64,000 nt of DNA from the NCBI RefSeq assembly GCF_045037415.1, contig NZ_CP173438.1; one strand, written 5' to 3'. The notes under the pieces were generated by a model, which did not search any database, was not told where the DNA came from, and saw only the letters and a program-made list of their open reading frames with translations. How positions within the stretch are numbered: position 1 is the first letter of the stretch; each line of letters begins with the position of its first letter. Below are positions 12,431-30,998 of this stretch, in pieces. The stretch comes from Escherichia coli. GTDB lineage: Bacteria; Pseudomonadota; Gammaproteobacteria; Enterobacterales; Enterobacteriaceae. The position numbers and the translations under genes are program-made.

Positions 12431-13477
12431 TCATTTTCTCTGGCCACCAACTACGGGCACTACTTTAACTTTCCGGTCATATGCTGCTGTCTGTCGCGGG
12501 TTCTTATGCCCGGAAATTGCTTGCTTCTCTTCCAGGCTGCCTTCCAGATCAGAGATACCTTTTGCTTTCAGATCATGAAATGTGAAGTCTATTTGCAGAT
12601 GAGGATATTTTTCCTGTGCTGCCGCTTTGACATCACGCCAACGAGAGTTAAAACCATCACGGGTATACTTGCCACCGGTAGTTTGATGAATCACAAACAG
12701 GCTACTGATTCCCGTTTTTAATGGCAGAGAACGAGCCAGAGCTATCGCTTTCTGCAGACGAGGCGACCAGGCTTTGATTTGCTTAACGCCGGTTTTTCCC
12801 TGACGAATGTAGATCCCGGAATCGAACAGCTGGTCTTTCTGCAATGAAAGTACATCACTCTGTCTGGCCACGCATAAGTAGGCAATCTCCATTGCTACGC
12901 GAACAACATCAGGAGACACTTCATAAACGGCCTGATATTCTTCATCCGTAATATAACGTTCGCGAGCTTTCTCTTTAAACTGTTTAACTCCCTGACAAGG
13001 ATTCCTCTGAACATAACCTCGTTCATAACCCCAACGGAATACCCGGGACATAAAGCTTTTTTCCCTGTTTGCCTGAGTTCGGCTTGATAAACCGCGTTGA
13101 TCCATATAGCGCCGAATATGTTCAGGTTTGATTTTATCCGGGTCGATCTTCCCGAAGACAGGCAGAACTTTTCCGGAATATTTTGTGTAGTCTTTCCGGG
13201 TTTCGACTGCCAAATCCATAAAATCAGGGGAGGTCATGAATTGTTCCGTGAGCGCCTGAAAAGTATTTCTTTCTTTTTCGTCACCGACCGCTTTTTCATA
13301 TGCCAGCCATACGGCTGATCGTGGTGCATCCAATGCGCACAGGCGTATCGCTTTGTTATCTTTATTCCTGAATTCGTAGGCCGCTTTGCCCTGGTAAACA
13401 CGAGGCGGCATCCAGTTATCTGCTGGGTTCTTTCTCTTTCCGGCCATTAAATATTGCTCCAAAATCAGGTTCATCAT
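12431..13477 (-). CDS. int: tyrosine-recombinase phage integrase
   Basis: 348-aa ORF adjacent to attL. C-terminal catalytic-domain hallmarks (ARQSDVLSL, FHDLKAKG, SGHKNPRQTAAYDRK). Start may be the internal Met at 13447. Confidence 0.92.
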   Translation of the reverse strand: MMNLILEQYLMAGKRKNPADNWMPPRVYQGKAAYEFRNKDNKAIRLCALDAPRSAVWLAYEKAVGDEKERNTFQALTEQFMTSPDFMDLAVETRKDYTKYSGKVLPVFGKIDPDKIKPEHIRRYMDQRGLSSRTQANREKSFMSRVFRWGYERGYVQRNPCQGVKQFKEKARERYITDEEYQAVYEVSPDVVRVAMEIAYLCVARQSDVLSLQKDQLFDSGIYIRQGKTGVKQIKAWSPRLQKAIALARSLPLKTGISSLFVIHQTTGGKYTRDGFNSRWRDVKAAAQEKYPHLQIDFTFHDLKAKGISDLEGSLEEKQAISGHKNPRQTAAYDRKVKVVPVVGGQRK

Positions 13478-13679
13478 CTTTTCGCGTCGTCACCTCCTGT
13501 AAATTGCGAAATTTTATTGGGTTCATGAAATGGCCCCAGGTTGTTTTTGGGTGTCCGTCAGCCCTTTCCATGAAGAAAATTCCAGCCCGGCGAAGAGCCT
13601 CACATTGCTTTGATTTAAGTGGGCTTCCCGTCAGCTCGACCATTTCTTCTCTGGTGATTATGTCGTGATCGCTTTTCAT
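13416..13679 (-). CDS. excisionase-like small DNA-binding protein (DUF4224-like)
   Basis: 87 aa directly upstream of int and overlapping it. ITREEMVELTGSPLKSKQCEALRRAGIFFMERADGHPKTTW resembles DUF4224. Preceded by the GAGGAAAGACC-ATG motif. Confidence 0.6.
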   Translation of the reverse strand: MKSDHDIITREEMVELTGSPLKSKQCEALRRAGIFFMERADGHPKTTWGHFMNPIKFRNLQEVTTRKDDEPDFGAIFNGRKEKEPSR

Positions 13680-13839
13680 GGTCTTTCCTCATTATGTAGC
13701 TTATTGCGTCATCTGCCTTCTGGCAGGCACGGGCAATATCAGACTCGGTCAAAGTCTGTTTCCTGACGCTGGCCGACAGTCGACCAATTTTGATATCAAA
13801 TGCGGAGAGCAGAGTTGCTCCCGGTTGCCATCGCAGCAT
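13615..13839 (-). CDS. hypothetical protein (weak call)
   Basis: ATG at 13839 with a GGAGG 7 nt upstream, but 65 nt overlap with the next gene. The track start at 13869 is a TTG. Confidence 0.3.
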   Translation of the reverse strand: MLRWQPGATLLSAFDIKIGRLSASVRKQTLTESDIARACQKADDAISYIMRKDHEKRSRHNHQRRNGRADGKPT

Positions 13840-13888
13840 TGTGATCCTCCGGTGTCTGGTGAATCGCAATGCTAGCGATGGTGAGTTT

Positions 13889-14071
13889 TTATTTCTGATT
13901 AGGCGTAATCAGTTCTTGTGGGGTGAATGCCGATTTCTCCCGAGTGACCTTAATGTTTTCTGGCAGGTGTAGCCCAAGTTCGCAGCGGCTCCGTGCTTCA
14001 ATAATGCCATTGGTACCATCGGCAAGTACCAGGTGAACCGCGTCACCACGCTTTAATGTGAGTTTAAGCAT
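13889..14071 (-). CDS. CsrA-like small RNA-binding protein candidate
   Basis: 60 aa. Ungapped alignment with E. coli CsrA (61 aa) conserves M1 L2 L4 T5 G9 E/D10 G33 P37 V42 R44 E45. TAATG coupling to the upstream gene. Confidence 0.5.
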   Translation of the reverse strand: MLKLTLKRGDAVHLVLADGTNGIIEARSRCELGLHLPENIKVTREKSAFTPQELITPNQK

Positions 14072-14640
14072 TAGCGTATCCTCAGTGACCGTTCGCCGCG
14101 TTCCAGATGTGCGCCTGGTACCGGGTTTAATAACTCGGCTGGTGGTGTTTCTCCACGCGCCAGTATTTCGGCGGCAACCGCCTCCGCAGATTCAATCACT
14201 TCTTTAATGGCTCGCTTGTTTGGTGTAATAACCGTTTCTACATCAACAAGTGACACGCCCTCATACTCATCCGGGATCTTATCTTTGCTATCGATAATTA
14301 CCCGGATAGTCCCCTGTGCATCAGTAAATGTGTTTTTTGCGGTTTTCAGTTTATCCAGGCCAGCAGCTTGCAGGCAGGTGAGCATATGCTTTCGAATTGC
14401 TTTTTCCTTGCCTTCAAAGGACGTCTTACGGGTTGCCAGGCGAGACATTTCTTCAGCGCAGGTATTGGCATTGCCCTGTAAATTACGGCAGATGACCATC
14501 ATGGCGTCCAGTTTGTCTCCCAGTTCTCCTTCCATGCCTTCAAGCGTGTCGGCGATCATCTCTGGCGTCAGTTCATCGGCGGTTTCTAACAGGTCAATCA
14601 GACTGGCATATTCTTTTGCAATAGCGATAGCAGTGCTCAT
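14071..14640 (-). CDS. Siphovirus Gp157-like early protein
   Basis: 189 aa acidic helical protein. The N-terminal pattern resembles the Gp157 family as I recall it. Lies in the recombination module. Confidence 0.5.
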   Translation of the reverse strand: MSTAIAIAKEYASLIDLLETADELTPEMIADTLEGMEGELGDKLDAMMVICRNLQGNANTCAEEMSRLATRKTSFEGKEKAIRKHMLTCLQAAGLDKLKTAKNTFTDAQGTIRVIIDSKDKIPDEYEGVSLVDVETVITPNKRAIKEVIESAEAVAAEILARGETPPAELLNPVPGAHLERGERSLRIR

Positions 14641-16853
14641 GCTGTTTGCTCCTGTGCAGCGGTAAGGGCGGCGAGGCGTTCAGTTTTAATGTCGGTGATA
14701 CGGCGCAGACGTGATCCCAGATACGATGAATATTCTTTATCGCCTTTGGTTTCCGCTGCTTTCCTGTGTACATCCACTTCGCGGGCGATGAGGCCAAATA
14801 CCTTGTTTACTTCGTTGGCGGTTACCGCGGCGGCCAGCGTATTGGCAACGTTGATAAGCTTCTCATCCAGTTCCTTACGCAGACGGGTAGCATCTTCCGC
14901 ATTCTCGCTGGCATTCTTGATATCAAACTCAGCTTTATTCCTCTGGCGGTATTCCGGATTGTCGTACAGGCCCATGAAAATATCGGCGCTGAATCCGAGA
15001 GGGGATAGCGCTTTCTTAACAGCATCCGTCCAGGATTTCTTCGGTGCTTCGCCGTCGCTTGTTGGTCCGTATTTAGTGTCGTAGATATAAGGTGTGCATC
15101 CGTAAGCCTCGGACTCACCGCGTACCCCATTCAATATGTACCAGACTCTCACTTTCATGGTGTGGTGCATTTCACATAGGTACCCGCCAACACCGTCTTG
15201 AATCAGATCCCATTCTATTTTTTCACCAACCTGTTTTTTGCGAACTATTGGTGCGCCTTTATCAAAGCGCTCCTCCAGCACCTCTACCCCCCAGCCAATA
15301 CCAAATGGCCCAAATTCGCGAGTCGCTTTCATCGCTATATAAGTGCCGTTGATGGATGTGCCGCCGCCATTCTGAGAGAAAGCACTGGTGAAGCGCTCAT
15401 CGGTTTTGAATACGTTCTTCCACAATGCCAGGTTATCCGTGTCATCTGAGTCCTTTAACTCCGTTTCGATAGCTGAGATTGCATTCTGCCGCTTGTGCTC
15501 TTCGGCATGGATCCGCTCAACCAGCGCGTCAACGTTCTGCACCAGATCCTTTACCTGCTCGCTAAGTTGTTCTTGTGGAGGAGTCTCTTCTGCCAGGGTA
15601 ATAGCTGCAGGTTCCCTCTGTGATACGGCGTTATTTTCAGGTACGTCATACACATGGCGAGGCGTGACAAACTGCTCACGCAACTGCTGCAAACTACGTT
15701 CTCCAGCATTTGCAGCTTCGCTTTTTTCGCCCTGATTTGAGGGTGTTTCTGACATCATCCCATCAATTGAGAATCGTCCGCCGCCGTGGTTGGTGACTTT
15801 TACATCATCCTTGGGTGCTGCTTCCTTTGGCTTCTCTTCAACAGCATTTGCATCACGCTGCCCGTTAGCTTGCAGCCAGTTGTCGATGTGACTGCGCAGG
15901 GATTGTGGGAAGTGGTACGTGTCTTTTGCGGGGGCGCTCTGAATAACACCGAATACTGATGCGCGGTCATAGGCAAGGATCTGATCCGTTGTGCGCAAGG
16001 CCATTGACCAGCGTTTAAAATCTTCCCTGTCCTGACTGATTATTTCGTCTGCCGCTTTCAGGATGCTGGGGGTGATTTTTTCCGGGGCAACAGGTAACAG
16101 GGCGCAGGCAATTTCACGATCCAGAGTGGCGTGAGTCTGTTTGTAAGGACGTGCGGATGCTGTTTCTGGTTTTACCTCCGGCAGCATTTCATCTCGTTTA
16201 CCGGGATTCTCTACCCATTTTTTTATAAATTTGGAGATAGTCCAACTGGTCGGGTTTTGTTCCTGGGTATCGCAACTTGCCAAAATTGCATGTACCAGAT
16301 TATTCAATCCAGCAATATGCATGTACTCGATGGGCTTACACGCCACCATGGCATCAAGAACGATGCGGTTAAACGCGTCAACCTCATCCTCACTGTCAGT
16401 ATCACTGTTATCGAGCATCTCCAGGTATTCACGCGTCTGCACAAGCAATTCACTGTCGACTTCGTTGGCGTCGTGGCTGAACAGCAGAACGGCGGCGAAT
16501 CGTTCACGAGCCGGCAGTTTCATCAGGTCGCTAACCTGTGAGATATCTGCTGAACTGCAATCTGAATCAACAGGAGTGTTAACTACCCATTTTTCGCCAT
16601 CAAAACTGTGTTCTGTGGCAAACGTCTCATCAAACTCACCGACGCCTGGGCGCGGTTGGCCCGGGGCATCTTCCCAGATTTTAGGTTTGAAATAGTTGTC
16701 GCCGTGGTCAGGGTAGGCTTCCCACAATTTGCCGATGATGATGTTCTCGGCAACTTTTTTGTTAGGGGCGGCGATGGCGATGGCCAGCGCCGGGATCGCG
16801 CCGTTTTTGAGCGCGCCTTTTTTCGCTTCTAACAAGCCGTTAAAAATGGTCAT
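14637..16853 (-). CDS. 738-aa protein with a C-terminal Rad52/Sak-like single-strand annealing domain
   Basis: Region ...NGGGTSINGTYIAMKATREFGPFGIGWGVEV...AYGCTPY...KKALSPLGF resembles Rad52/22-family annealases. The ~480-aa N-terminal extension is unassigned. Confidence 0.65.
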   Translation of the reverse strand: MTIFNGLLEAKKGALKNGAIPALAIAIAAPNKKVAENIIIGKLWEAYPDHGDNYFKPKIWEDAPGQPRPGVGEFDETFATEHSFDGEKWVVNTPVDSDCSSADISQVSDLMKLPARERFAAVLLFSHDANEVDSELLVQTREYLEMLDNSDTDSEDEVDAFNRIVLDAMVACKPIEYMHIAGLNNLVHAILASCDTQEQNPTSWTISKFIKKWVENPGKRDEMLPEVKPETASARPYKQTHATLDREIACALLPVAPEKITPSILKAADEIISQDREDFKRWSMALRTTDQILAYDRASVFGVIQSAPAKDTYHFPQSLRSHIDNWLQANGQRDANAVEEKPKEAAPKDDVKVTNHGGGRFSIDGMMSETPSNQGEKSEAANAGERSLQQLREQFVTPRHVYDVPENNAVSQREPAAITLAEETPPQEQLSEQVKDLVQNVDALVERIHAEEHKRQNAISAIETELKDSDDTDNLALWKNVFKTDERFTSAFSQNGGGTSINGTYIAMKATREFGPFGIGWGVEVLEERFDKGAPIVRKKQVGEKIEWDLIQDGVGGYLCEMHHTMKVRVWYILNGVRGESEAYGCTPYIYDTKYGPTSDGEAPKKSWTDAVKKALSPLGFSADIFMGLYDNPEYRQRNKAEFDIKNASENAEDATRLRKELDEKLINVANTLAAAVTANEVNKVFGLIAREVDVHRKAAETKGDKEYSSYLGSRLRRITDIKTERLAALTAAQEQTA

Positions 16854-16883
16854 TGGTCTTTCCTCATTACAGGTCAGTGGTTT

Positions 16884-17204
16884 TTAGTAGGGGAGCTCAT
16901 CGGTATCTGGCGTGTATTCGATGCAAAGTAACTGCTGGATTTTGTCATCGATAGCAGCAATACGCTGTTGGGCGTCGGCGACTGTTTTCTGTTTTTGTTC
17001 ACGCAGTTGCTCGACCTGTAAACCGATGATGTCGATTGGCTCGGGCTGGTTAACGGTAATTTCAATTTCGCGGCTTTCCAGAAGGATGTACCTGTCTGGA
17101 AAATTTTTTGACATATCAACAGTCGCAACAAGCAGCTTTTCGTGGCTGAAAGTTGAAGTTGCATAATGAATAAAGAGTGTTACTGGGATGGTGCGCGCTT
17201 CCAT
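16884..17204 (-). CDS. hypothetical early protein
   Basis: 106-aa ORF with a strong AAGGAG RBS. First clear ORF of the leftward operon. Confidence 0.6.
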   Translation of the reverse strand: MEARTIPVTLFIHYATSTFSHEKLLVATVDMSKNFPDRYILLESREIEITVNQPEPIDIIGLQVEQLREQKQKTVADAQQRIAAIDDKIQQLLCIEYTPDTDELPY

Positions 17205-18060
17205 AGCGACTCCTTGGTAATGTATACTCAGAGCCGATCAGCGAATATTGATCAGCTTCCATAGCGTCAGTGTCGTTGGTCTTTCCTCATCACAAGTTTG
17301 GTCACTTGTGATAAATCCGAATGGTTTGGTCGCCGTTCGGGGTAACTGGCCCGCCTTGTGCGGGTCTTTTGCTATCTAAAGGGTGCCGGTTACGTTTCCG
17401 GCGTCGTTATGTTTCCATTACGACCGTACAGGGCTGGTCAGGCCCGGGCTGGTCTTTCCTGTTTTGAGCTGGTCAGGCTCATGGTCAACGCTGGTCAGGC
17501 GTGGTACTTCCTCCGGTCTTTCCCTGGTGTCACGCTGCGGGTTTGGCCTCTCCTGTTGGGGACTCAGGCACAGCGATAAAACCTGGCTGTGTGAAAAAAT
17601 GGCCCATCGTGCGGACTGGGCAAAGACTAAACACAGCAAATTGATGATGGGCGCCCGGAATCGAACCGGGTAACGGGCAGGGAGTTCCCGTTAAACACCT
17701 GTTCACCACAACCGGGAGCGCACTCCGCCATTTCAAAATTTAACGACAAAGCTCAAAGTTGAGTCGATGAAGTGCGCTCTCGTGTTGTAGCCAGGACTCT
17801 TCCCTGGTGGTCACACCGTATCGCCTTGATGGTGAATCAATCGCTCATACCTGGCTGTGGCTTGCACATTCCGGCTACCTGCTATGGAGACAACGCGTTA
17901 AGGCTCCGCTTCCATCCAGACCGCTTCGACACATGTGCCATATGCCGGTGAAGTCTTTCCCTCTGTCACCGTGTTGGCGCCGACGCGCAAAATTTGGTGC
18001 CGTCTTTCCGGCTGTCAGAACGTGTTTCTGAACAACTGCCGCTGGGTAAGCGTTGTTGAT
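17205..18060 (-). other. ORF-free, GC-rich transcribed leader of the leftward early operon (candidate structured RNA)
   Basis: No protein-like ORF on either strand. Many hairpins, five GGAAAGAC copies and three GCCTGACCAGC copies. Lies between the putative pL and the first ORF. Confidence 0.4.
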
Positions 18061-18067
18061 GAAAGTG

Positions 18068-18096
18068 ACTTTACAATTTGTATTTGTAATGGTCAA
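18068..18096 (-). promoter_or_regulatory. candidate pL promoter with overlapping operator
   Basis: Minus strand reads TTGACC-N17-TAAAGT. The palindrome TACAAtTTGTA (18072..18082) overlaps the -10 and spacer. Confidence 0.45.
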
Positions 18097-18214
18097 TGTG
18101 TTTTTAAAAAATAATTTGTAGTTAGGGGCAAAAAAATATTCACTGTGTAAAGGTGTTTTTGTGTTAGGGGAAAGTTGCATGCCAGCAGCGGCTGGCCTGG
18201 AAATTTGAACTGAA

Positions 18215-18608
18215 CTATTTTGTCTGGTTTTTGGCTTCAAGTAGTTCTTTTAGCAGTAGATCGAAGTGCTCTCTTTTTTCTTTTAGCTCATTGATTAATT
18301 TATTTTTTTCGCTCTCAGGCAGTCCTCTGAATAGTTGCAGTAGAGCCTGTTCTTGCGGGGTTAGTTCTTGATTGTAATTACCCGGGTGTAGTGTGGATTC
18401 ATCCAAATATTCCCCTTCATTCATGAAGAAAAAATGAACAGGGTATCCGGTCACTTTTGCTAGCTTGTCTAATTTATCTTTTCTTGGAGTTACCCCATTA
18501 CACCATGCCTGAACTGATTGAGCCGTAACCCCAATATGGCGAGCTAACTCAGATTGAGAACCAGCCTAAGTCTTTTAGAATCCGTTGTAGTCGGCTAGCA
18601 AAAGCCAT
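18215..18608 (-). pseudogene. CI-type HTH (XRE) repressor interrupted by a 1-nt frameshift
   Basis: ATG at 18608 gives MAFASRLQRILKDLGW and then a TGA. The next frame continues SQSELARHIGVTAQSVQAWCNGVTPRKDKLDKLAKVTGYPVHFFF... into ORF 18215..18454. The span is 394 nt, i.e. 131 codons plus 1. Confidence 0.75.
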
Positions 18609-18727
18609 GTTTTTCGTTTTTGTGTTCATACCGTAAGGATACAAGGTTTAATTGTAGGGAGCATTGCAAATATAATTTGTAATTACAGTTATTGTTTGTA
18701 ATGATGACGCGGACACAAGGAGTCCAT
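18609..18727. promoter_or_regulatory. divergent immunity control region (PR/PRM-like) with operator candidates
   Basis: TATAAT at 18671..18676. Perfect palindrome TGTAATTACA at 18678..18687. TTTGTAAT-type half sites recur here and at 18072-18125. Confidence 0.5.
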
Positions 18728-18958
18728 ATGGATAAACAACTGCAAGACAAAATTCTTTCCGTAATGAGTCAATCCGAGTTAGGGCGGCGATTAGGGAAAA
18801 AACCACAAACGGTAAGCCTCTGGTTCAAAGGACGGGTTCCCGGTGAAGAGGTTTTGCGCACATCTGAAGCTCTTGAATGGCGCGTGACCCCTCATGATCT
18901 TAGACCGGATCTTTACCCAAACCCAGATGACAGCTTGCCTAAAACGGAAGCAGCTTAA
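18728..18958 (+). CDS. Cro/YdaS-like HTH protein
   Basis: 76 aa from the ATG with an AAGGAG RBS. HTH in SQSELGRRLGKKPQTVSLWFKG. Divergent from the repressor. Confidence 0.7.
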   Translation: MDKQLQDKILSVMSQSELGRRLGKKPQTVSLWFKGRVPGEEVLRTSEALEWRVTPHDLRPDLYPNPDDSLPKTEAA

Positions 18959-19016
18959 CTGTTGGTGAGCCCCAAATCTGATTAAGCGTAATCAATTTTT
19001 AGCGACAGGAGACGCT

Positions 19017-19493
19017 ATGGAAAACCAAGAGGAATTACAAAAAGAGATTTTGACCTGGGCGGCAAGGGCAGGGCAGGAACTCGTCACGATTGAAATCTGC
19101 CGGGCCTGGTTCAGTCAGGGACGCAATGATGAGTTGAGACTACATGAATTTGAGGACGCGGACGGCAACGTGGACTGGAGAGCCATCAACAACAATCGGC
19201 AGAAAATCTTTCGCTGGTTACGTGGCGAGACAACGGCGGCGCGCCGAAAAACTCAGGTGCTGGCCAGTGTGATGAAAGCCGTGCTACCCGCAGAACGGCG
19301 GGCACGTCTGGAGTCGCCGGGCGATCCCGTTTTGCTGGCAACGCTGGCGGCAAAAGAAGGGGTGGAAGCGATTAACGCTGTACATCTCCACTTCGCGCCA
19401 GAGTTAACTATTCAGGAAATTGACGAAGCAATAGCGGCGCTGGTAGCGACGCGAGGAGCAGTGATACGCACTGCGCAAGACCACCATGCATGA
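19017..19493 (+). CDS. CII/YdaT-like early regulator candidate
   Basis: 158-aa ORF immediately after the cro-like gene, with a good RBS. Function assigned by position only. Confidence 0.45.
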   Translation: MENQEELQKEILTWAARAGQELVTIEICRAWFSQGRNDELRLHEFEDADGNVDWRAINNNRQKIFRWLRGETTAARRKTQVLASVMKAVLPAERRARLESPGDPVLLATLAAKEGVEAINAVHLHFAPELTIQEIDEAIAALVATRGAVIRTAQDHHA

Positions 19494-19532
19494 GCGCCTG
19501 ACCAGCGTTTAACTTATACCGAGGAAAGACCG

Positions 19533-19757
19533 ATGTTAAGACATATTGACCGCATTACCTGGCGTAACGGCTGGCACCTGAATGGACGCCCGGCACATGT
19601 TGCAGAGATCCGCCCCATATTCGATGGCCGCGTCGCAGCTGCACGTTCTGTATGGGAAAAGTACGAAGAAGAAAAAGCGAAACTGCGTGAGCAAAATCTC
19701 TCTGGCGCTGCCTATGAGGCTGGCTGTCGCGTTCTCTCAGAGGCTTTGGGCATATGA
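19533..19757 (+). CDS. hypothetical protein
   Basis: 74 aa. Preceded by GCCTGACCAGCG ... GAGGAAAGACC-G-ATG. Confidence 0.55.
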   Translation: MLRHIDRITWRNGWHLNGRPAHVAEIRPIFDGRVAAARSVWEKYEEEKAKLREQNLSGAAYEAGCRVLSEALGI

Positions 19758-20509
19758 ACATCCTCCCGTTACTTGATAGACCCATAGCCTTCCAGAGAAG
19801 TTTTATCCGTCTTGAAATGGGCGTGACTGCCGCATTGTTTCTGTCGCAGTTGACGTACTGGACAAACAGAACAACTGACGACGGCTGGGTATATAAAACC
19901 CAGGATGAGTGGGAAGAGGAAACAGGGCTTTCACGATACGAGCAGGAGGGCGCGCGCAAAAAACTACGTGGTCTCGGCGTCTTGCTGGAACGTAAACAGG
20001 GCTTGCCTGCCAGGCTGTACTACAAAATCGATAATGATGTGTTGTGCCAGCTACTTACGTCCGCATACAAGGATGCGGAAAAACCACATACAGGTGAGGG
20101 GAAAACCACCAGGCCTGTACGTGGAAAACCAACAAACATTCTTACAGAGAATACTACAGAGATTATTACTGATGGTGAATCGGCTGACGCCGACACCCAA
20201 CAACCTGCCGACCAGAGAATAAATTATCAGGTGATACTCGATACCTATCACGAGATTTTGCCAGAGATGCCACCAGTGAAAATCCTCACTGACGGCAGAA
20301 AAAAACACCTTCGCACTTTCTGGAAAAAATTCAATTTCAATGAGTCCCGTTGGCGGGCCTATCTGGAATTTATCGGTGGCAATTGTCGCTGGATGCTGGA
20401 GGACAGGCCAAATGGCAGGGGAGGATTCTGGCGGCGTAAAAATCTTGATTATCTGATTACCGAACGCTGCTATGTTTCGGTCAAGGAAGAACGCGCAAAT
20501 GATAAATAA
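19754..20509 (+). CDS. replication initiator (O-like, winged-helix N-terminus)
   Basis: 251 aa. N-terminal region typical of phage replication initiators. Immediately upstream of, and overlapping, the helicase gene. Confidence 0.6.
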   Translation: MNILPLLDRPIAFQRSFIRLEMGVTAALFLSQLTYWTNRTTDDGWVYKTQDEWEEETGLSRYEQEGARKKLRGLGVLLERKQGLPARLYYKIDNDVLCQLLTSAYKDAEKPHTGEGKTTRPVRGKPTNILTENTTEIITDGESADADTQQPADQRINYQVILDTYHEILPEMPPVKILTDGRKKHLRTFWKKFNFNESRWRAYLEFIGGNCRWMLEDRPNGRGGFWRRKNLDYLITERCYVSVKEERANDK

Positions 20510-21914
20510 CGCGATTGCACTGTACAGCGTTGACGCAGAACAGGCTGTTCTGGGCTGTCTGATGCTGAATACCGACCACGACAGAACCAATGCGGTATTT
20601 GCGTTACTGAAACCGGAAACGTTTTATATCAATGCGCATCAGGTTATCTACCGGGAGATCAAAGGATTATTTCAAGCTGATAAACCAACTGACCTGATAA
20701 CACTGACCGAACTGATGGAATCGAAGGGGCTGTATGAGCGCGTGGGGGGATTCGCATACCTGGCTGAAATGAGTAAGGCGGCGATTCCGGCCTCAATGGT
20801 CAACTACGCGAAAATTGTACGTGAAAAAGCCATTCTTCGTTATGCCGTGGAAAAGTTGAATTCTTGTCTGGAGATTATGATCCAGCCTGCAGATATGACT
20901 GCTACTGACAGGATCACCGCCGTTCAGCAAGTGATTGGGCAGGTGGCCGAACATTCCCGTACCGGGCATAAGGGCGGTTTGCGTCCGGCAAGTGAAGTCG
21001 TCGATGACTGGATAGATGACCTTGAGCGCCGTTTCAATGATCCAGCACATGCAGCCGGACTAACGCTCGGAATCGAAAGCCTTGATCGCTTAATGGCACC
21101 AAAGCAGGCGTTAAGAGGTTCATTGGTCGTTATTGGTGCCCGGCCAAAAATGGGCAAGACAGCCGCGTTTAATAAAATTGCGGTGCATTTTGCTCTGAAT
21201 CATCGTTTGCCGACGCTGGTATTTAGCCTGGAAATGACTGACAGAAGTCTCATTGAACGCATGGTTGCGCAGGAAGCAAAGGTCAATTCGGAGATTTTTT
21301 ATCTTGGCCCTAACGATGAATCTGAATTGAGTCTCGCAATAGCAAAGGCGGGGGAGATTGCCGAATCCAACATGATGATTGACAGCACGGCAGGTGTAAC
21401 CCTTGCGCATATTGTCGCTGAATGTCGAAAAGTTAAACGGATGCGTGGCTCGGTTGGCCTGGTGGCAATTGACTATTTGACGCTGATGAAGACCGAATCG
21501 GCAGAGCGTAGGGATATTGCGTATGGCGATATCACAACCGGTTTGAAGAACCTGGCAAAAGAGCTGGATTGTGTTGTGGTCCTGCTGACGCAACTCAACC
21601 GAAAGCTTGAAGAACGTGCCGATAAGCGGCCTAACCCGAGCGACAGTAAAGATACCGGGCAGATCGAACAAGATTGCGATGTCTGGATTGGCCTCTATCG
21701 TGATGCTGTTTATAACGAAAATGCCGACCCAAATCTCATGGAAATGTTGCTACGTCTGAACCGCGAAGGACCATCGGGAACAGCCTATGCCCTGATGAAA
21801 AATGGCTCAGTTATTGATATCAGCGATGAGGAGGTTTATCGCCTTACCAACGACCGCTCAGAAAAAAATAAACGTTATTCCCGTAGCGATAATTCTCGCA
21901 CAAATGAATTTTAA
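20499..21914 (+). CDS. DnaB-family replicative helicase
   Basis: Start MINNAIALYSVDAEQAVLGCLML. Walker A GARPKMGKT. Conserved DnaB C-terminal motifs. Confidence 0.9.
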   Translation: MINNAIALYSVDAEQAVLGCLMLNTDHDRTNAVFALLKPETFYINAHQVIYREIKGLFQADKPTDLITLTELMESKGLYERVGGFAYLAEMSKAAIPASMVNYAKIVREKAILRYAVEKLNSCLEIMIQPADMTATDRITAVQQVIGQVAEHSRTGHKGGLRPASEVVDDWIDDLERRFNDPAHAAGLTLGIESLDRLMAPKQALRGSLVVIGARPKMGKTAAFNKIAVHFALNHRLPTLVFSLEMTDRSLIERMVAQEAKVNSEIFYLGPNDESELSLAIAKAGEIAESNMMIDSTAGVTLAHIVAECRKVKRMRGSVGLVAIDYLTLMKTESAERRDIAYGDITTGLKNLAKELDCVVVLLTQLNRKLEERADKRPNPSDSKDTGQIEQDCDVWIGLYRDAVYNENADPNLMEMLLRLNREGPSGTAYALMKNGSVIDISDEEVYRLTNDRSEKNKRYSRSDNSRTNEF

Positions 21915-21952
21915 CCACGCCTGACCAGCGTGAAATAACCGAGGAAAGACCA

Positions 21953-22363
21953 ATGACCACCACTCCAGGCAAATTAGAGTACCCGTCGGACAAAGGACAC
22001 ATAGACGACGGTAAAAACTATCTCGACGTCATTTTGTGGAATATGAACGTCGGGCCACGTGCGCGCACTCGCGCGGTTTTTGTGCCAAGACCTAAAGCAG
22101 GCAATTTTTCAACCCCTGCTAAGCCTGCCCGTCAGGCATCCGTAGCCGCAGCGCCAGCAGTGAAACGTAAGGGCAAAACGCACACCGGGATCGCGATTCG
22201 CAGAAATGGTGAGCGGCAAGTGAAACTCCACGAAACAGCGACAACCTGGTGTGCCTCACCGCATGAAACTTACGACAAGATAACCGGGCAGCGCATTGGC
22301 GCGCCTGGTCGCTGCCGCCTGCTGCTGAGTTCCATCACTCCGATAGCAAAGAAAGGGGCGTGA
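21953..22363 (+). CDS. hypothetical protein
   Basis: 136 aa. Preceded by the second GCCTGACCAGCG ... GAGGAAAGACC-A-ATG cassette. Confidence 0.6.
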   Translation: MTTTPGKLEYPSDKGHIDDGKNYLDVILWNMNVGPRARTRAVFVPRPKAGNFSTPAKPARQASVAAAPAVKRKGKTHTGIAIRRNGERQVKLHETATTWCASPHETYDKITGQRIGAPGRCRLLLSSITPIAKKGA

Positions 22364-22364
22364 T

Positions 22365-22601
22365 ATGGCCGGGCAATCAGATTACCTGCCGCCCGGCTTA
22401 CCACACAACCGCGCCAAATGGCCCCAGGAATACCAGCTTAAAGAGCACTACGACATGCGAGCGGCGGCGCTGATCCGCCAACTCTTTGAGAAACGTATTC
22501 CGAGGGGAAGCGTGATTGAGCAAATCGGAATGACGCCAGATACGTACCGGGAATTTTTCAGAGAGCGTCTGAACTACTGGAGAGGGGTGATGGAACAATG
22601 A
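22365..22601 (+). CDS. hypothetical protein
   Basis: 78 aa, tightly packed in the rightward early operon. Confidence 0.55.
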   Translation: MAGQSDYLPPGLPHNRAKWPQEYQLKEHYDMRAAALIRQLFEKRIPRGSVIEQIGMTPDTYREFFRERLNYWRGVMEQ

Positions 22602-22909
22602 AATACAAACGGTGGGTGCGTGCGGAAGTCGTAATCATCAAACAATGTGCGGGCAGCATGACAGTTGAACGTATAGGGCAGCTTATTGGCAGAACCGGTG
22701 CAGCGGTACGCACAAAAGCGCGCGAGCTGAAAATCTGTATGTATCTGCGGGGTAATTATCACCAGTCAGTGAAATACCTCCAGGAAGATATCGAGCTGGC
22801 AAGGGAATTACATCAGTCGGGTATTAATCGCCAGGATATCGCAGAAAAACTCGAAATGCCGATCGGAGCGGTGAATCAGTTTGTTTATTTTGAGCGGAGA
22901 ATTTCATGA
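22598..22909 (+). CDS. hypothetical protein with two HTH-like segments
   Basis: 103 aa. MTVERIGQLIGRTGAAVRTKAREL and INRQDIAEKLEMPIGAVNQF look like HTH motifs. 4-nt overlaps on both sides. Confidence 0.55.
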   Translation: MKYKRWVRAEVVIIKQCAGSMTVERIGQLIGRTGAAVRTKARELKICMYLRGNYHQSVKYLQEDIELARELHQSGINRQDIAEKLEMPIGAVNQFVYFERRIS

Positions 22910-23130
22910 AAGAACTTTTTCTTGCATTTGTGCCCCGGTTTATTAATGACCAGATCGCACTGACTGATAATGGTGAACAATATGAAATTGCCTGCAGCAT
23001 GGTGGATGTGAATCCTGGCGAACGGTATGACGCGATGTGTGACCTGAAAATATTTACCTGGCTGGGTTGGGCTATTCCGTGTGGAGAACCAACCAATATT
23101 CGTCCGTTTGAGAGCAGGGAGGCTGTATGA
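22906..23130 (+). CDS. hypothetical protein
   Basis: 74 aa, overlapping start and stop with its neighbours. Confidence 0.5.
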   Translation: MKELFLAFVPRFINDQIALTDNGEQYEIACSMVDVNPGERYDAMCDLKIFTWLGWAIPCGEPTNIRPFESREAV

Positions 23131-23317
23131 GTGAATTGAAAATACGTCGCAAGGCAATAGCACGCGTTAAAAATCTATTACCAGTGCCTGTCAAATATCG
23201 TTTTTGTGGTGGGAATGTACGGATTGGTACGGATGTATGGTGATTGCGGAGTGACGTAAAACGAATCGTTGTGGGTGTAATATCGTCAATATCATTGGTT
23301 TCCCGGAGGGAAAGGAC

Positions 23318-23539
23318 ATGTTTGGCGATAAACTGGAGTTACCACGGAACGGGCGGATAGTGCTCTATATTTCAGATTACAAAGTAACCCGGGCTGAGGT
23401 GTTGGAACCGGAAAAACATCTGGTCACGTTACCGGACATTATTGAGTTGTATAAGCGGGTCGGATATGTGGACTTGCATCGCGATGATGTTCCCGTTGAG
23501 TGTATGGAATGTGAACACCGGAGGTTTGAAGTTGATTGA
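23318..23539 (+). CDS. hypothetical protein
   Basis: 73 aa with a GGAGGG RBS. Confidence 0.5.
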   Translation: MFGDKLELPRNGRIVLYISDYKVTRAEVLEPEKHLVTLPDIIELYKRVGYVDLHRDDVPVECMECEHRRFEVD

Positions 23540-23540
23540 A

Positions 23541-23569
23541 TTGACTTAGAAAAAGTCCGGGGCTATAGT
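23541..23569 (+). promoter_or_regulatory. near-consensus sigma-70 promoter
   Basis: TTGACT-N17-TATAGT. Confidence 0.55.
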
Positions 23570-23575
23570 TTCCGC

Positions 23576-23650
23576 GCAGCCGCAAAATCGGTTGCCGGGA
23601 TTGGCGTCCCGGATATCTAAGTGACGCATAGCCGCGTTAGCGGTTTTTTT
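23576..23650 (+). ncRNA. candidate ~75-nt short transcript or attenuated leader upstream of the ant-like gene
   Basis: Runs from the predicted start after the promoter through hairpin CCGGGA-ttggcg-TCCCGG (23595..23612) to GCCGC-gtta-GCGGT plus T7 (23631..23650). Confidence 0.35.
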
Positions 23651-23811
23651 ATGTGTTAGGCACGGCCACATTCGCATTATGGTGGGCTGTGTGGGGGCTT
23701 CTGTGGAAGCGCCGGGTTCACTTAGCCGGTTACGCCAACCCTGCACAGCTCACCACCAGATGATTGGCGTCGCTGGTGGTGATGAAAAAAACACTAAGTG
23801 AGGCCACTGCG

Positions 23812-24600
23812 ATGACAGTCCAAATATCTGCGGAATCCCTTTCTCCGCTACATCATAACCAACTTCCCGTCATCACTACTGAATTGCTTGCCAGTTTGTA
23901 TGGCACGGAAGTAAATGGTATCCAGCAAAACTTCAAGCGCAACATCGCCAGATTTGTCGTAGGAAAGCATTTTTTTAAGCTGGAAGGTAATGAATTACGC
24001 GACTTCAAAAACAGACTGACAGATAGTCAGTCAGTTGCTAAACATACCCGATCCCTCATTCTCTGGACAGAACGCGGCGCAGCTCGCCATGCCAAAATGC
24101 TGGAAACAGAACAGGCCTGGGAAGTTTTCGAAAAGCTGGAAGATTGTTATTTTAGCCAGCGTCCAGAGAGGCGGAGTACAACTACCGATGACCGTACTCC
24201 CTTGCGTGATGCCGTTAATATACTGGTCGGCAAGAAAGGCATGATGTATCCCGATGCCTACACCATGATTCATCAACGCTTCGCCGTCTCTCACATAGAA
24301 CAACTGTCACAGACGCAAATGTTAGAGGCGATTGAATACATCCACTGCCTGCTACTCGATGAAAATCACCCAACCATTCCAGATTTTTCTTTTATCACCA
24401 CTATCAAAAATGGAAAAGTGACCGGGATGCGCCATGTTGCCAAAGGCGAACATCTGATGACCTTTGACGCTTTCAAAGAGATCGCTGAGCGGGCAGGGTA
24501 TCTGGTGATCCACAGCGACAATCTGCGAAGTATGACACTGGATAAATTGATGGTAATGGGGAAAAAGTCGGCTATATCCGTTGCTAATTCAGCATTTTGA
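23812..24600 (+). CDS. ORF6N-domain antirepressor-like (Ant/KilA-type) protein
   Basis: Start MTVQISAESL with a GAGG RBS. NQLPVITTELLASLYGTEVNGIQQNFKRNIARFVVGKHFFKLEGNELRDFK fits the ORF6N pattern. Confidence 0.65.
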   Translation: MTVQISAESLSPLHHNQLPVITTELLASLYGTEVNGIQQNFKRNIARFVVGKHFFKLEGNELRDFKNRLTDSQSVAKHTRSLILWTERGAARHAKMLETEQAWEVFEKLEDCYFSQRPERRSTTTDDRTPLRDAVNILVGKKGMMYPDAYTMIHQRFAVSHIEQLSQTQMLEAIEYIHCLLLDENHPTIPDFSFITTIKNGKVTGMRHVAKGEHLMTFDAFKEIAERAGYLVIHSDNLRSMTLDKLMVMGKKSAISVANSAF

Positions 24601-24628
24601 CAGGTTGTTTGGGGCGGAAATACTCTAT

Positions 24629-24710
24629 TTGCGCTTAAAAAGGTATTTGACCACGACCAGCACGAGACCGAATACCTCTGTCAAAGTACCGCCCATATAA
24701 AACAGTTACA
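24629..24710 (-). pseudogene. 3'-terminal remnant of a paralog of gene 28047..28652
   Basis: ~82 nt align without gaps to 28051..28132 with ~10 mismatches. Minus strand encodes ...YMGGTLTEVFGLVLVVVKYLFKRK*, versus ...YMGGTLTEVFGLVLVVTKYLFKRK* in the full gene. Confidence 0.65.
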
Positions 24711-24774
24711 TATGCACTTGATGACTAAGCTGGCACCAGGTTAACACCTGGCGCCAGCTTGAAGGAGACTTCAG

Positions 24775-25698
24775 TTATTGGTTTCTGAGGAAAGCGATTC
24801 TTGAAAGGGTCATTTGCGTCTGGCAGTCGACCATTTTCTTGACTTCAGCATCTGTTCCCTGCATTGAAACTTTACCGCACATAGCATCCTTAGTTTTGAT
24901 CCACTGACGCTGAGAAGGCAGCAAATCTTTTTTCTTCGCCGGGGTTAACTTGCTCCAGACGGTACTCAAATCAGAGTCGGCATTCGCAAATGCCATTCGG
25001 GACTGATCAAGGTTGTCAGCTTTTTGCGGCTGAAGTTGTGCCTGTCTCTCTATTTGCTTCTCCGCCTCATACTTAGCCTGTTCTTGCGCCCTGAGTTGCA
25101 CCTGTTGTTCCGCTTCAATTTGACTCTGTTGGGCATCCTTAGCCTGCTGGATTTTCTGCTGCTCAACGATCGGGGTGATAATGGAAAGCGATGTCAGTAA
25201 AGCGGCGCCCACTGATATCGGATTATCAGTAGAGGTTTTTACAAAAACGTTTTTCTGATCGTCGGTCGCCTGCACGGTGTAGGTGATACGTTTTGAAAAG
25301 GCGTTTGCGTTGTTCTCCAAAAACAGGCTTTCCATTTGCTTATCGAGATTACGATTAAAATTCTTTCTGTAAGCATCTGAAAGCTGGACGTACTCGTTCG
25401 CAGATAGAGTCATCGTCACGGTCCCTTCACAAGTTTTCATTGTGCTGCCCGTGTCACTTGATGTTGTGGAGATCTCAGAGATGGCTAGTTTGATCTTGTC
25501 CAGTGTGCTTCGTTTGGTCTGATTAGTGACATCAGGGTATTTATCGACCTGTTCAGAGAGTCCTTCATAAGCAGATTTTTTTAATAAATCCATGAGAGCT
25601 GACTGGGTTATTTCCGAAGAACAACCGATCTCATCTTTTTTGTTATCACAGCCTGTAAGGGCAATGGCGAGTAAGAGTACTGAGTATTTTAATCTCAT
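24775..25698 (-). CDS. lipoprotein with a DUF1311 (LprI-like) C-terminal domain
   Basis: Lipobox LLAIALTGC. Q-rich coiled-coil middle. C-terminal LPSQRQWIKTKDAMCG...C...R pattern typical of DUF1311. Confidence 0.75.
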   Translation of the reverse strand: MRLKYSVLLLAIALTGCDNKKDEIGCSSEITQSALMDLLKKSAYEGLSEQVDKYPDVTNQTKRSTLDKIKLAISEISTTSSDTGSTMKTCEGTVTMTLSANEYVQLSDAYRKNFNRNLDKQMESLFLENNANAFSKRITYTVQATDDQKNVFVKTSTDNPISVGAALLTSLSIITPIVEQQKIQQAKDAQQSQIEAEQQVQLRAQEQAKYEAEKQIERQAQLQPQKADNLDQSRMAFANADSDLSTVWSKLTPAKKKDLLPSQRQWIKTKDAMCGKVSMQGTDAEVKKMVDCQTQMTLSRIAFLRNQ

Positions 25699-26211
25699 GA
25701 ATTCCCTTTAGAGTAAGGATTGGTTTTTAAGACGCGGTCTGTAATCAGTCCCGAGAGCTACAGTAAACAACGCTGAGCACTGAACGCATCACAGGTAAGG
25801 TAAAAGGTGATATCGGCAAAGGCTGTGAAACCTTTAATTCAACAGATGGGAACGGTATGCGCAGGATCCTGTAACGACGCTCCCAAAACCGGAAACCTGT
25901 AAGGCATGTTTTCGCTGCTGAACTTAATATACGAACCTGCACTATCATGAACATATTTTATATCGTTATACCCCGAGTGATTGTGCCCGGCAATGGATAG
26001 TGTCCTGGAGGAACTATTTCTACTGTAAAAGGTAGATATTTAATTTCAGTTTTGAATTATTCCCTGCTGTTAATAACAATGGCTGTATATGGCACCGAGT
26101 AGGCATTTTTTCGCTTACTGAAGGGCAGCTGTGAGCGAGGAACAGACTTTCCCTACTTCGTTGAGAGTACACCTAGTACAATCAAGGCTAAATGATAAAA
26201 ATATACAAAAT

Positions 26212-26242
26212 ATCATATTTATGATATATATAATGGCATTAA
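26212..26242 (+). promoter_or_regulatory. palindrome plus MAL mini-ORF unit, copy 1
   Basis: ATCATA-tt-TATGAT followed by ATGGCATTAA. A near-identical unit occurs at 26798..26836. Confidence 0.3.
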
Positions 26243-26314
26243 TCTTATTCTTGGATTACGTTGAAAGGGTAATATTATATTTGTGTAACATAGTTTAGAT
26301 AACAATGCCGTTAT

Positions 26315-26322
26315 GGGGGGGG
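26315..26322 (+). repeat. homopolymeric G8 tract
   Basis: Eight consecutive G in a very AT-rich stretch, 3 codons after an ATG (26305). Separates two reading frames. Confidence 0.9.
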
Positions 26323-26797
26323 AAAGACATTTCAACATATTAGCTTTGTATCTAACGCTCATGTAGATCTCGATTTTGAACTTAAAGAACAATTATTTTT
26401 TAGAGAGCAAGGTATTTTTGGGGAACAAAAACATAAAGTAATGGAGAGAGGAGAATGTATCAAAAAATCATCGATTTAATTTAGATTGTCCGTATAGTTG
26501 GGGGTAAGTCGAATCGCTGGGCTACATGGAATATTGTGTCAAGTAAAAATATATTTCAATCTTGCAATAACCGATTGTTGAAAATAATGTCAAATCTTAA
26601 TGGTGAATGGGGAGAATATAATAAACATGAGTCGATATTATGCAAATGGATTTAAATATTTTATACCCGAAGACATAGGGTTTCGAGAGTTCGATGAGAC
26701 TACTTTGAATGCTTTCGAATTTGCTGGCTAAAACATATAGGTTATATCTTACATCTGTTTGTAATGGAGCGTAGATGCGACAAGCTACACCATAATA

Positions 26798-30760: not shown

Positions 30761-30796
30761 ATGACAAATGCCATAAAATACTGTATAAATATACAG
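30761..30796 (+). promoter_or_regulatory. sigma-70 promoter overlapped by a LexA (SOS) box
   Basis: ATGACA-N17-TATAAA. CTGTATAAATATACAG at 30781..30796 fits CTGT-N8-ACAG and the TACTGTATATATATACAGTA consensus. Confidence 0.6.
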
Positions 30797-30818
30797 GTTG
30801 TGGCATTGGGGGGAAGAC

Positions 30819-30998
30819 ATGAATATTCAAGAATCTATAGGCGAACTACCGGAAACATGCCGGGCTGTTATCAAGCGTAAGGACGGACACATCGTTGGTG
30901 TGCGTGTTCTGACCGATGATGAGCGGATTGCCAGCCTGATGGCGTTTCTCGAGTTGGCAGAAATAGCTGGATATACTATTACACCCCCTGACGCGTAA
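30819..30998 (+). CDS. small SOS-controlled protein (antirepressor candidate)
   Basis: 59 aa. ATG directly after GGGGGGAAGAC. First ORF downstream of the LexA box. Confidence 0.45.
   Translation: MNIQESIGELPETCRAVIKRKDGHIVGVRVLTDDERIASLMAFLELAEIAGYTITPPDA

Follow-up and report, generated by a model that had tools for sequence, protein, structure and literature searches.

The window analysed in this study is a stretch of 64,000 nucleotides (nt) of the Escherichia coli chromosome (RefSeq assembly GCF_045037415.1, contig NZ_CP173438.1), which is 100% identical to many ST131-type genomes and carries a prophage integrated beside the tRNA Gly-Cys-Leu cluster. The early region of this prophage is lambdoid, and its tail genes are P2-like. 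In the early region of this prophage an 11-nt motif, GAGGAAAGACC, recurs in front of the start codons of four genes, as was observed in an earlier note made from the same DNA, and this observation is confirmed here. From the comparison of sequences described below, we consider it reasonably probable that the motif family comprises the target sites of an antisense small RNA (sRNA) of ~140 nt that is encoded by the phage and would block the translation of early genes. This sRNA appears most likely to be a previously undescribed one, and a variant of the antisense-RNA control of phages.

Start-associated motif and its upstream hairpin

Exact copies of GAGGAAAGACC were found at five places in the window, that is, 13680-13690, 16855-16865 and 17278-17288 on the minus strand and 19521-19531 and 21941-21951 on the plus strand, and one more copy with a single mismatch lies at 17451-17461 (-); all the coordinates reported in the earlier note were reproduced. 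These six matches (five exact plus one with one mismatch) stand against 0.84 +/- 0.94 in shuffled sequences, and the number of six was reached in none of 100 shuffles. Likewise, GGAAAGAC is present in 11 copies against 1.8 expected, again a number reached in 0 of 100 shuffles, and the recurrence is therefore beyond chance as claimed. All copies of GGAAAGAC are located within 13190-26328, and none was found in the ~21 kb host flank or among the late genes. The motif copies of the early region are all oriented with local transcription, and the start codon follows immediately, with a spacing of 0 nt for the gene starting at 13679 and of 1 nt for those starting at 16853, 19533 and 21953, while the copy at 17278-17288, for which ACG in place of ATG had been noted, is indeed followed by AACG.

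Among the leftward copies, that at 13680-13690 (-) precedes the gene for excisionase (DUF4224, phrog_1266; ATG 13679) and lies inside an unannotated conserved open reading frame (ORF), phrog_27062 (13618-13839, -; ATG 13839, E = 1e-32), which overlaps the start of the excisionase gene. The copy at 16855-16865 (-) precedes the exonuclease gene (phrog_2489; ATG 16853), with a weak UGACCU element located further upstream (16875-16880, -). It had been proposed that the three leftward copies share a T(A/G)ATGA context that provides stop codons for the upstream gene, but this found support at none of them: the phrog_27062 ORF runs through the motif in frame at 13680 (..I M R K D..), the ORF upstream of 16855 ends 19 nt earlier (stop 16884-16886), and no upstream ORF exists at 17278. 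In the related phage vB_SmeS_BUCT708 (OM816834; L002), the TAATGA/TGATGA context is not kept at the exonuclease and leader copies. A looser relative, GGGGGGAAGACATG, is present at 30808-30821, but has only ~5 nt in common with the core and was not counted as a member of the family. On inspection, an extended pairing of the motif with the 3' end of 16S rRNA was rejected, as only GAGG can pair, and so was a Chi-like or replication-oriented DNA motif, as the orientation follows transcription and not the position of the origin.

The upstream partner, GCCTGACCAGC, was found in five exact copies (17433, 17468 and 17490 on the minus strand; 19496 and 21919 on the plus strand) against 0.87 expected from shuffles. 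It forms a small hairpin, GC[CUGACCA]GC (loops are written here in square brackets), of which the flanking bases covary: the flanks are CGC..GCG, AGC..GCU and GGC..GCC in the window, and GGCGC..GCGCC, CGCGC..GCGCG, GAGC..GCUC and the common AGCGC..GCGUU, with G·U in the mRNA sense, across loci. In front of the 74-aa phrog_2465 gene, the cassette at 19493-19531 (+) is composed of the hairpin AGCGC[CUGACCA]GCGUU (19493-19509), an 11-nt linker and the motif (19521-19531); in front of the 136-aa phrog_5148 gene, which comes after the helicase gene, the cassette at 21916-21951 (+) is composed of the hairpin CACGC[CUGACCA]GCGUG (21916-21932), an 8-nt linker and the motif (21941-21951). Both rightward cassettes had been recognized before, with spacers of 13 and 17 nt; the spacer of 13 nt between GCCTGACCAGCG and the motif is correct, but the other spacer is 10 nt and not 17. 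For the hairpins of these ribosome-binding-site (RBS) cassettes, G·U pairs fall on the mRNA sense in 12 cases versus 5, and the Shine-Dalgarno (SD) region of the targets is unstructured in prediction.

An exact-pattern scan for hairpin plus motif gave at least 215 cassette instances on at least 120 IMG/VR contigs, all enterobacterial. Among the cassette instances listed, hairpin and motif are separated by 8-24 nt of variable sequence, and ATG usually follows 0-3 nt after the motif. In BUCT708, of which the leader is only ~72% identical to that of the window, the motif is present at all five corresponding places and the hairpin at both rightward cassettes. The motif is thus kept at orthologous gene starts in related phages, the comparison on which the earlier note had let its interpretation depend. 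By gene, the motif was identified before phrog_2465, which heads the replication module, in 135 loci (with hairpin in 135/135), before the exonuclease gene in 109 loci (with upstream hairpin in 90/109), before the post-helicase gene in 90 loci (with hairpin in 90/90), and before excisionase genes of the DUF4224 family in 70 loci and of a second, unrelated family in 25 loci, in both cases with no upstream hairpin. A minor family of 94-96 aa (9 loci) and a few one-off ORFs are also preceded by the motif, and two more groups of short ORFs come after the motif at the place of the leader copy. Since the same motif is found before unrelated families, including two families of excisionase, it belongs to operon positions or functions and not to inherited genes.

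The cassettes of ~40 nt could instead be conserved junctions for the exchange of modules by homologous recombination, reflecting history and not function, as was also offered in the earlier note. They do border the replication module, in which the window and BUCT708 differ, and the same cassette is found before different genes; however, strand-specific G·U pairs and compensatory stems around an invariant loop are unexpected for a DNA recombination site, both elements are fixed while the spacer between them varies in length and sequence, and the motif is also located inside a coding region and in the leader. This explanation fails on the strand-specific structure, on the adjacency to start codons and on the antisense partner described below, and we regard it as highly improbable, recombination being at most a side effect. 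The other suggestion made there, a phage-specific signal for translation or RNA binding, is supported in kind by the strand-specific and compensatory hairpins, by the G·U pairs on the mRNA sense and by the location at the SD and start codon of fixed genes, but the likely antisense RNA partner had remained unseen.

Candidate antisense RNA gene and its predicted pairing with the motif

On the strand opposite to the leader copy of the motif, we identified by covariance modelling a candidate antisense sRNA gene at 17223-17374 (+), -10 box included, for which the putative RNA would extend from ~17235 to 17372 (~140 nt). Its putative -10 hexamer, TATACT (17223-17228, +; TATAAT in some relatives), from which a promoter is inferred, is conserved in alignments. 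The seed GUCGUUGGUCUUUCCUC (17272-17288, +) includes the complement of the ACG copy at 17278-17288, and its UUUCCUC is unpaired in the predicted fold. Then follow hairpin HP1 (17289-17312, +), with a 9-bp stem and the loop UUGGUC (17298-17303), hairpin HP2 (17316-17341, +), with the loop (U)UUGGUC(G) at 17325-17332, both recognized by covariation, and the rho-independent terminator GGCCCGC-cuugu-GCGGGUC followed by UUUUG (17348-17372, +), detected by terminator scan.

Alignment of 34 distinct versions of the segment 17185-17425 gave one and the same order on the plus strand, consisting of TATACT/TATAAT, a variable 5' hairpin, the invariant GGTCTTTCC(TC), HP1, HP2, GGGTAA and the terminator. 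Five of the six positions of the -10 box (T1, A2, T3, A4 and T6) do not vary among the 27 sequences of alignment A1, and in alignment A3 (34 versions) all versions shown carry TATA(C/A)T. GGTCTTTCC is invariant in all aligned versions. The stem sequence of HP1 differs among phages with its loop TTGGTC kept constant, and the loop of HP2 is TTTGGTC. The terminator stem covaries (GGCCCGC / AGCCCAC / AACCCAC), and the T-run is always on the plus strand.

The covariation was measured on 47 distinct sequences (A2). Paired cells amount to 93.5% versus 79.5% in shuffles, and double changes are found in 17 of 25 pairs; these values were reached in 0 of 500 shuffles, and no slid control came close. Compensatory changes are present in 8 of the 9 pairs of HP1, of which 99.8% of the cells are paired, and in 6 of the 9 pairs of HP2. 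As to the strand, G·U cells number 122 in the plus sense versus 12 in the minus sense (HP1, 21 G·U in the plus sense versus 1 A·C; HP2, 94 versus 3), which indicates that the structure is selected on the plus strand, antisense to the operon. Since the bias of G·U pairs in the target hairpins is opposite, the plus-strand RNA and the mRNA elements are complementary partners and not copies of one element. The predicted fold of the sRNA, in which UUUCCUC lies single-stranded between hairpins, has an energy of -59.5 kcal/mol (z = -6.6).

A covariance model, R1, built from 27 of the 34 versions (A1), detected a single match in the window, 17223-17374 (+), with 142.8 bits and E = 3e-34 (filters off). 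Of the first 99 cassette loci searched, 74 gave one match each, and so did each of 49 loci chosen solely by relatives of the phrog_2479 protein (52-100% identity), the product of the first gene of the operon; in all 49 the sRNA match ends 12-19 nt from the phrog_2479 ATG, on the opposite strand. As to 35 cassette loci without sRNA match, the stretches examined did not include phrog_2479, and for most of them the leader lies beyond the stretch, as judged from the cassette position. Among the cassette loci examined, no case was found of a locus that includes the leader and yet lacks the sRNA, which is present in one copy wherever the leader is included; locus L119 is a rearranged remnant. Matches were also obtained in Escherichia whittamii and in one Rosenbergiella genome, which were the only genuine ones among the matches listed from a seed-independent DNA pattern scan of genome contigs (596 Gb); the pattern used in that scan was too loose, and almost all the listed matches were due to chance.

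The sRNA gene is present in 448 of 5426 complete E. coli genomes (~8%), mostly ST131, and is annotated by RefSeq in none of these 448. Among the cultured phages of INPHARED, only BUCT708/709 carry the system, and no match was found to the sRNA of the type of locus L062. In Rfam 15, searched over the leader at gathering and permissive E-values, no family was found at 17223-17374; below the gathering score, Trp_leader (19 bits) and isrK (14 bits) matched the 3' part on the sRNA strand. As a side observation, the CRISPR array of E. coli 2020CK-00188 (L294, NZ_ABACVG020000001.1, ~1426410-1426503) carries two copies of one 33-nt spacer that is identical to the window sequence 17273-17305, which spans the seed, the first hairpin arm and its loop in the sRNA. 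BUCT708 is deposited as a Stenotrophomonas phage, but its early region is syntenic with that of enterobacterial prophages and includes the whole sRNA/motif system, and the recorded host therefore looks doubtful.

At each of the four gene starts the seed GUCGUUGGUCUUUCCUC can pair with GAGGAAAGACC(AAUGAC), SD and AUG included. The pairing amounts to 17 bp with one G·U for both the exonuclease target and the target at the 21953 gene (each GAGGAAAGACCAAUGAC), 15 bp with two G·U for the 19533 gene and 12 bp with no G·U for excisionase. When ranked by duplex energy, these four are placed 1 to 4 among the 57 gene starts of the prophage, with -32.0 to -32.7 kcal/mol, against -27.7 for the next best and a median of -17.8. 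Pairing of the seed with the SD-AUG region explains why the cis copy can read ACG where the targets read AUG. In addition, the UUGGUC loops of the sRNA are complementary to GACCA(A) in the target hairpin loops, and in antiparallel pairing the sRNA hairpins, located 3' of the seed, face the target hairpin, located 5' of the SD. UUGG and CUGA fit the YUNR U-turn motif of fast-pairing antisense loops. The only sRNAs in which both loops are UGGUU (loci L289 and L291) have target loops of CUAACCA, a match suggestive of loop-loop covariation.

Taken together, these observations suggest the following circuit. The plus-strand gene, which lies within the long untranslated leader of pL but on the other strand, would yield a structured RNA of ~140 nt, transcribed presumably from the TATACT box, of which the unpaired 5'-(GUCGU)UGGUCUUUCCUC-3' would pair with GAGGAAAGACC(AAUGAC), that is, with the SD sequence, the spacer and the start codon. 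The seed pairing would occlude the RBS of the excisionase gene, the exonuclease gene, the small translationally coupled gene heading the replication module and the first post-helicase gene, with the UUGGUC loops of the sRNA "kissing" the (C)UGACCA loops 8-11 nt upstream of the motif. Acting in trans at these four starts, the RNA would keep excision, recombination and replication silent as long as it is abundant, for instance in the lysogen or during the establishment of lysogeny. The leader carries six to eight further sites of the target type (GC[CUGACCA]GC, and G[GAAAGA]C preceded by UGACAG), a terminator within it and a sequence complementary to the whole RNA, so that strong transcription from pL would sequester the RNA and at the same time interfere, by collision, with its transcription, making the switch sharper; alternatively, pairing with the leader could promote termination, as in the case of the P4 CI RNA.

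Several observations weigh against this circuit. The putative promoter has a good -10 box but no recognisable -35. The seed and the motif core are invariant in the 47 (A2) and 34 (A3) versions, which are overlapping sets, and seed-target covariation therefore cannot be observed; beyond the core, cognate combinations pair over 3.02 bp and non-cognate ones over 2.97 bp, with no covariation in this seed extension. The covariation between loops rests on two related loci, and CUAACCA target loops were also found in phages with UGGUC loops in the sRNA (8 of 143). Excisionase targets are devoid of the upstream hairpin (0 of 95 instances), the UUGGUC part of the seed is paired with the 5' hairpin in the predicted fold, and part of the complementarity at 17278 would be shown as a matter of course by any RNA antisense to the motif copy in the leader. 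The target loop (7 nt) and the GAAAGA hairpins of the leader are more conserved than base pairing requires, and a protein partner may therefore also exist.

The lack of seed-target covariation also leaves room for an antisense RNA whose action is confined in cis to the pL leader and phrog_2479, with the motif as an independent translational enhancer or standby site for 16S rRNA or ribosomal protein S1, of which the leader would contain copies by coincidence. Cis-antisense RNAs are known in phage leaders, such as sar of P22, according to PMC12197685, and the motif does contain GAGG at the ideal spacing from the start codon. On the other hand, the AAAGACC beyond GAGG is invariant and yet unable to pair with the 3' end of 16S rRNA, the motif is found at only 4 of the ~57 genes of the prophage and at no late gene, and both loops of the RNA are under selection in the plus sense and match target hairpin loops elsewhere in the genome. 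We therefore judge this combination to be unlikely.

The pL leader and readings without a trans-acting RNA

If the four gene starts are targets of the antisense sRNA, the pL leader may be the site where it is counteracted. The probable pL promoter, TTGACC-17 nt-TAAAGT, was located at 18068-18096 (-) by promoter scan, with TTGACC conserved in the alignment. The first leader hairpin, CGC[UUACCCA]GCG at 18040-18052 (-), recognized from the sequence and the alignment, has a CUAACC-type loop in relatives, and is followed by two pL-proximal units (17945-18035, -) consisting of UGACAG and a hairpin NNNG[GAAAGA]CNNN, which include the GGAAAGAC copies at 18002-18009 and 17953-17960. A hairpin resembling an intrinsic terminator, GUCCGCACGAUGGGC followed by CAUUUUUUC, was detected at 17592-17616 (-) by terminator scan; the relatives carry at this place different and stronger stems and U-runs (GCCCGGG..CCCGGGC in BUCT708; GCCCCG..CGGGGC). 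Beyond the terminator come the unit UGACACCAG-GGAAAGACC (17510-17530, -), with a hairpin-type copy at 17516-17523, and, at 17430-17503 (-), three hairpins of the target type NGC[CUGACCA]GCN (17433-43, 17468-78 and 17490-500) together with a copy of GGAAAGACC at 17451-59.

The order of elements along the transcript is the CUAACC/UUACCC hairpin, the two UGACAG-G[GAAAGA]C units, an optional middle module and the terminator, and 3' of the terminator the CUGACCA hairpins and GGAAAGACC copies, the complement of the sRNA and the first gene of the operon. The alignment indicated that the leader is conserved downstream of divergent promoter/operator sequences of pL, its most conserved part being the two UGACAG-hairpin units, found in 54-65 loci. 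The G[GAAAGA]C stems, of 4-5 bp, covary with G·U on the pL sense, and the G·U pairs of the leader hairpins, counted over the loci, are on the sense of the pL transcript in 14 cases versus 4. The "decoy copies" that the earlier note had seen in the leader are thus real, structured and conserved. They may titrate the sRNA when pL fires, or may be sites at which the sRNA promotes termination.

The optional leader module, at 17776-17947, is found with 70-77% identity in noncoding DNA of unrelated phages, namely SPN1S (between terminase and portal genes), Tyrion, SopranoGao and the P1-like D6 and SJ46. A tRNA-like T-arm, GGTTCGATTCCGGGCGCCCA (~17640-17662, -), adjoins this module, and a weak RprA-like match of Rfam, 37 bits and below threshold, was obtained at 17592-17702 (-).

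Two hairpins within ~100 nt of pL and an intrinsic terminator in the leader would also be expected if the hairpins were nut- or put-like signals for antitermination past the leader and downstream terminators, with GAGGAAAGACC as a strong RBS that happens to share its sequence. The GAAAGA loop appears to resemble that of lambda boxB, and CUGACCA/CUAACC that of phi21 boxB, and no other obvious way past the leader terminator was recognized. Against this, no N-like arginine-rich protein was seen, nor an N-like ORF or a boxA in the 850-nt leader, no search being aimed at N-like proteins. The first product of pL, phrog_2479, is not basic. Moreover, the motif is fixed at 0-3 nt from start codons, the excisionase sites are without hairpin, and the antisense RNA would be left unaccounted for. 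We thus consider antitermination to be quite unlikely; this reading, like the RBS-enhancer and the recombination-junction readings, explains less than the antisense sRNA does.

The conservation of the loops, which exceeds the need of a kissing interaction of 5-6 bp, may point to a phage RNA-binding protein, controlling translation or the fate of the mRNA, for which motif and hairpin would be the sites and the leader a CsrB-like sponge, the antisense RNA being then separate and acting only in cis. The candidate proteins would be the 60-aa product of phrog_2482 (13892-14071, -), the "CsrA-like" protein of the earlier note, and the 74-aa product of phrog_2465. The motif contains AGGA, and the leader displays GGAAAGAC in covarying hairpins many times (4-8 copies, several as G[GAAAGA]C). 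All 45 untruncated anchored loci carry the phrog_2482 gene; its product gave a weak match to a CsrA profile over residues 1-45 (E = 0.097), and one of its arginines lines up by eye with R44 of CsrA. However, the match to the Pfam CsrA family amounts to 13.1 bits against a cut-off of 27, the family profile found no CsrA among PDB sequences, and the AF2 model (pLDDT 77), a 4-stranded beta meander, gave no Foldseek match with E < 2, a monomer model of an intertwined dimer being a weak test. With E. coli CsrA as the tblastn query, no match was found. Thus phrog_2482 does co-occur with the system, but its relationship to CsrA was not demonstrated by Pfam, PDB profile or fold. Furthermore, the CUGACCA hairpin is without GGA, the invariant AAGACC is not explained by a CsrA model, and a protein leaves unexplained an RNA fold on the opposite strand that shows the exact complements of both elements unpaired. 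For these reasons we give this reading, including either candidate protein, a rather low probability. The phrog_2482 family was identified in prophages of E. coli, Salmonella, Citrobacter, Enterobacter, Klebsiella and Yokenella.

Relation to known systems and further features of the prophage

The antisense sRNA and its motif are nearest in mechanism to c4, sar and the P4 CI RNA, and nearest in appearance to the start-associated sequences (SAS) and their extended partners (ESAS) of Cluster K mycobacteriophages. SAS were first described in mycobacteriophages in 2011, with the 13-bp consensus GGGATAGGAGCCC, up to 2 deviations and 11-19 copies per genome (PMC3203893), and their function remains unverified (PMC12699233). 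As in Cluster K, the motif is asymmetric with one orientation, contains an SD core, is located a few nt before ATG of a subset of non-structural genes, is conserved whatever the gene family, is absent from the host (here the ~21 kb flank) and has one copy off gene starts; about half of the SAS sites have an upstream partner element, another likeness to the present system. In contrast, only the GGA core is common between GGGATAGGAGCCC and GAGGAAAGACC, the host is different, SAS are far more numerous, and a candidate antisense RNA partner can be named here. ESAS are 17-bp imperfect inverted repeats that form no RNA hairpin according to their authors, whereas the partner in the prophage is a hairpin of 4-5 bp with compensatory changes and an invariant 7-nt loop. 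The analogy with Cluster K drawn in the earlier note is therefore apt as a description, while the sequences are unrelated.

In the mycobacteriophage Anaya (JF704106; L295), the single inverted SAS (L295 31871-31883; record ~59,870-59,882) was found to form the apical loop of 10 nt, CCUCCUAUCC, in a long gene-sense hairpin, located in a 385-nt gene-free gap after a strong terminator (L295 31683-32067; record ~59,680-60,066), with z = -4.8 for the 141-nt fold. This hairpin could be an anti-SAS RNA and is given here as a lead.

The c4 RNA of P1/P7 (Rfam RF01695) is likewise a structured phage antisense RNA with exposed segments that pair at two sites, including an RBS, as described in PMC12197685; the likeness is one of working mode and not of homology. 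c4 lies upstream of its only target operon, icd-ant, on the strand of that operon, and is released from the transcript by RNase P, whereas the RNA described here lies opposite a leader, with its own -10 box and terminator. The loops of c4 vary and set heteroimmunity, whereas here one invariant seed would serve at least 4 targets scattered over both early operons. No match to the C4 model of Rfam (RF01695, clan CL00128) was obtained at 17223-17374, at the gathering score or at E <= 5.

The sar RNA of P22 is, like the present one, encoded opposite the leader of the operon that it represses; in the prophages compared here, the plus-strand unit lies inside the pL leader, convergent with its promoter, in 49/49 anchored loci. 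sar blocks a single overlapping RBS, whereas the inferred 5' end of the present RNA (~17235) lies upstream of the SD and ATG (17204) of phrog_2479, and the copy that it covers, 17278-17288, is without start codon. In P4, repeated leader sites beside a terminator are complementary to the CI RNA and pair with it; this RNA arises by processing of a same-strand transcript and brings about termination of transcription. Neither sar nor the P4 CI RNA is accompanied by common start-site motifs on distant genes. Trans-acting sRNAs of the Hfq type, including the sponges AgvB/AsxR treated in PMC12197685, share with it a seed, hairpins, a rho-independent terminator, several RBS targets and possible decoys; here, however, regulator, targets and decoys are all in one phage, and the target is an invariant 11-nt motif and not a set of loose sites. 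Of the features generally used for trans-acting sRNAs, terminator and seed are present, and the promoter is represented only by the conserved -10 box. A search of full-text literature for the motif strings gave only unrelated primer matches, and no comparable antisense or small RNA of phages was found in a keyword search of the literature or in text searches of a 2025 review on phage sRNAs.

If the antisense sRNA operates as proposed, it would be a widespread and so far unannotated regulatory RNA of temperate phages, carried by a prophage that is stable in pandemic ST131. Its layout would be a new one for antisense control, with one RNA gating dispersed early functions through a common start sequence and with leader decoys placed to switch it off, and it would offer the first concrete and testable mechanism for start-associated sequences. 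More tentatively, we suggest as a possibility that the sRNA, the shared motif and the leader acting as decoy or termination site form a self-contained RNA circuit, which would serve a large family of enterobacterial prophages as a second layer of immunity independent of the repressor, and that the same logic may explain the SAS of Cluster K.

The leftward pL operon consists, in order, of the leader, phrog_2479 (106 aa), exonuclease, Gam-like, phrog_2482 (60 aa), the phrog_27062 ORF, excisionase and integrase, and the rightward operon of cro-like, CII-like (YdaT), phrog_2465 (74 aa), O-like, DnaB, phrog_5148 (136 aa) and more genes. The cI-like repressor gene, 18215-18630 (-), carries a 1-nt insertion relative to five relatives that are 98.4-99.8% identical (L243, L071, L252, L256 and L254), which breaks the frame ahead of the helix-turn-helix, and RefSeq annotates just a 63-aa remnant; the prophage is nevertheless stable in hundreds of ST131 genomes. 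Upstream of an ORF6N-domain gene, at 23563-23760 (+), lies an antisense-RNA immunity module of a known kind, for which Rfam gave isrK with 80 bits, C4 with 75 bits and the a1b1 target of c4 with 53 bits. This genuine C4/isrK module indicates that the prophage has a second and unrelated RNA control system. Finally, a LexA-box-like palindrome, TACTGTATAAATATACAG, is located at 30780-30797, directly upstream of the ORF starting at 30820, and fits the SOS control that had been assigned to this ORF in the earlier note.

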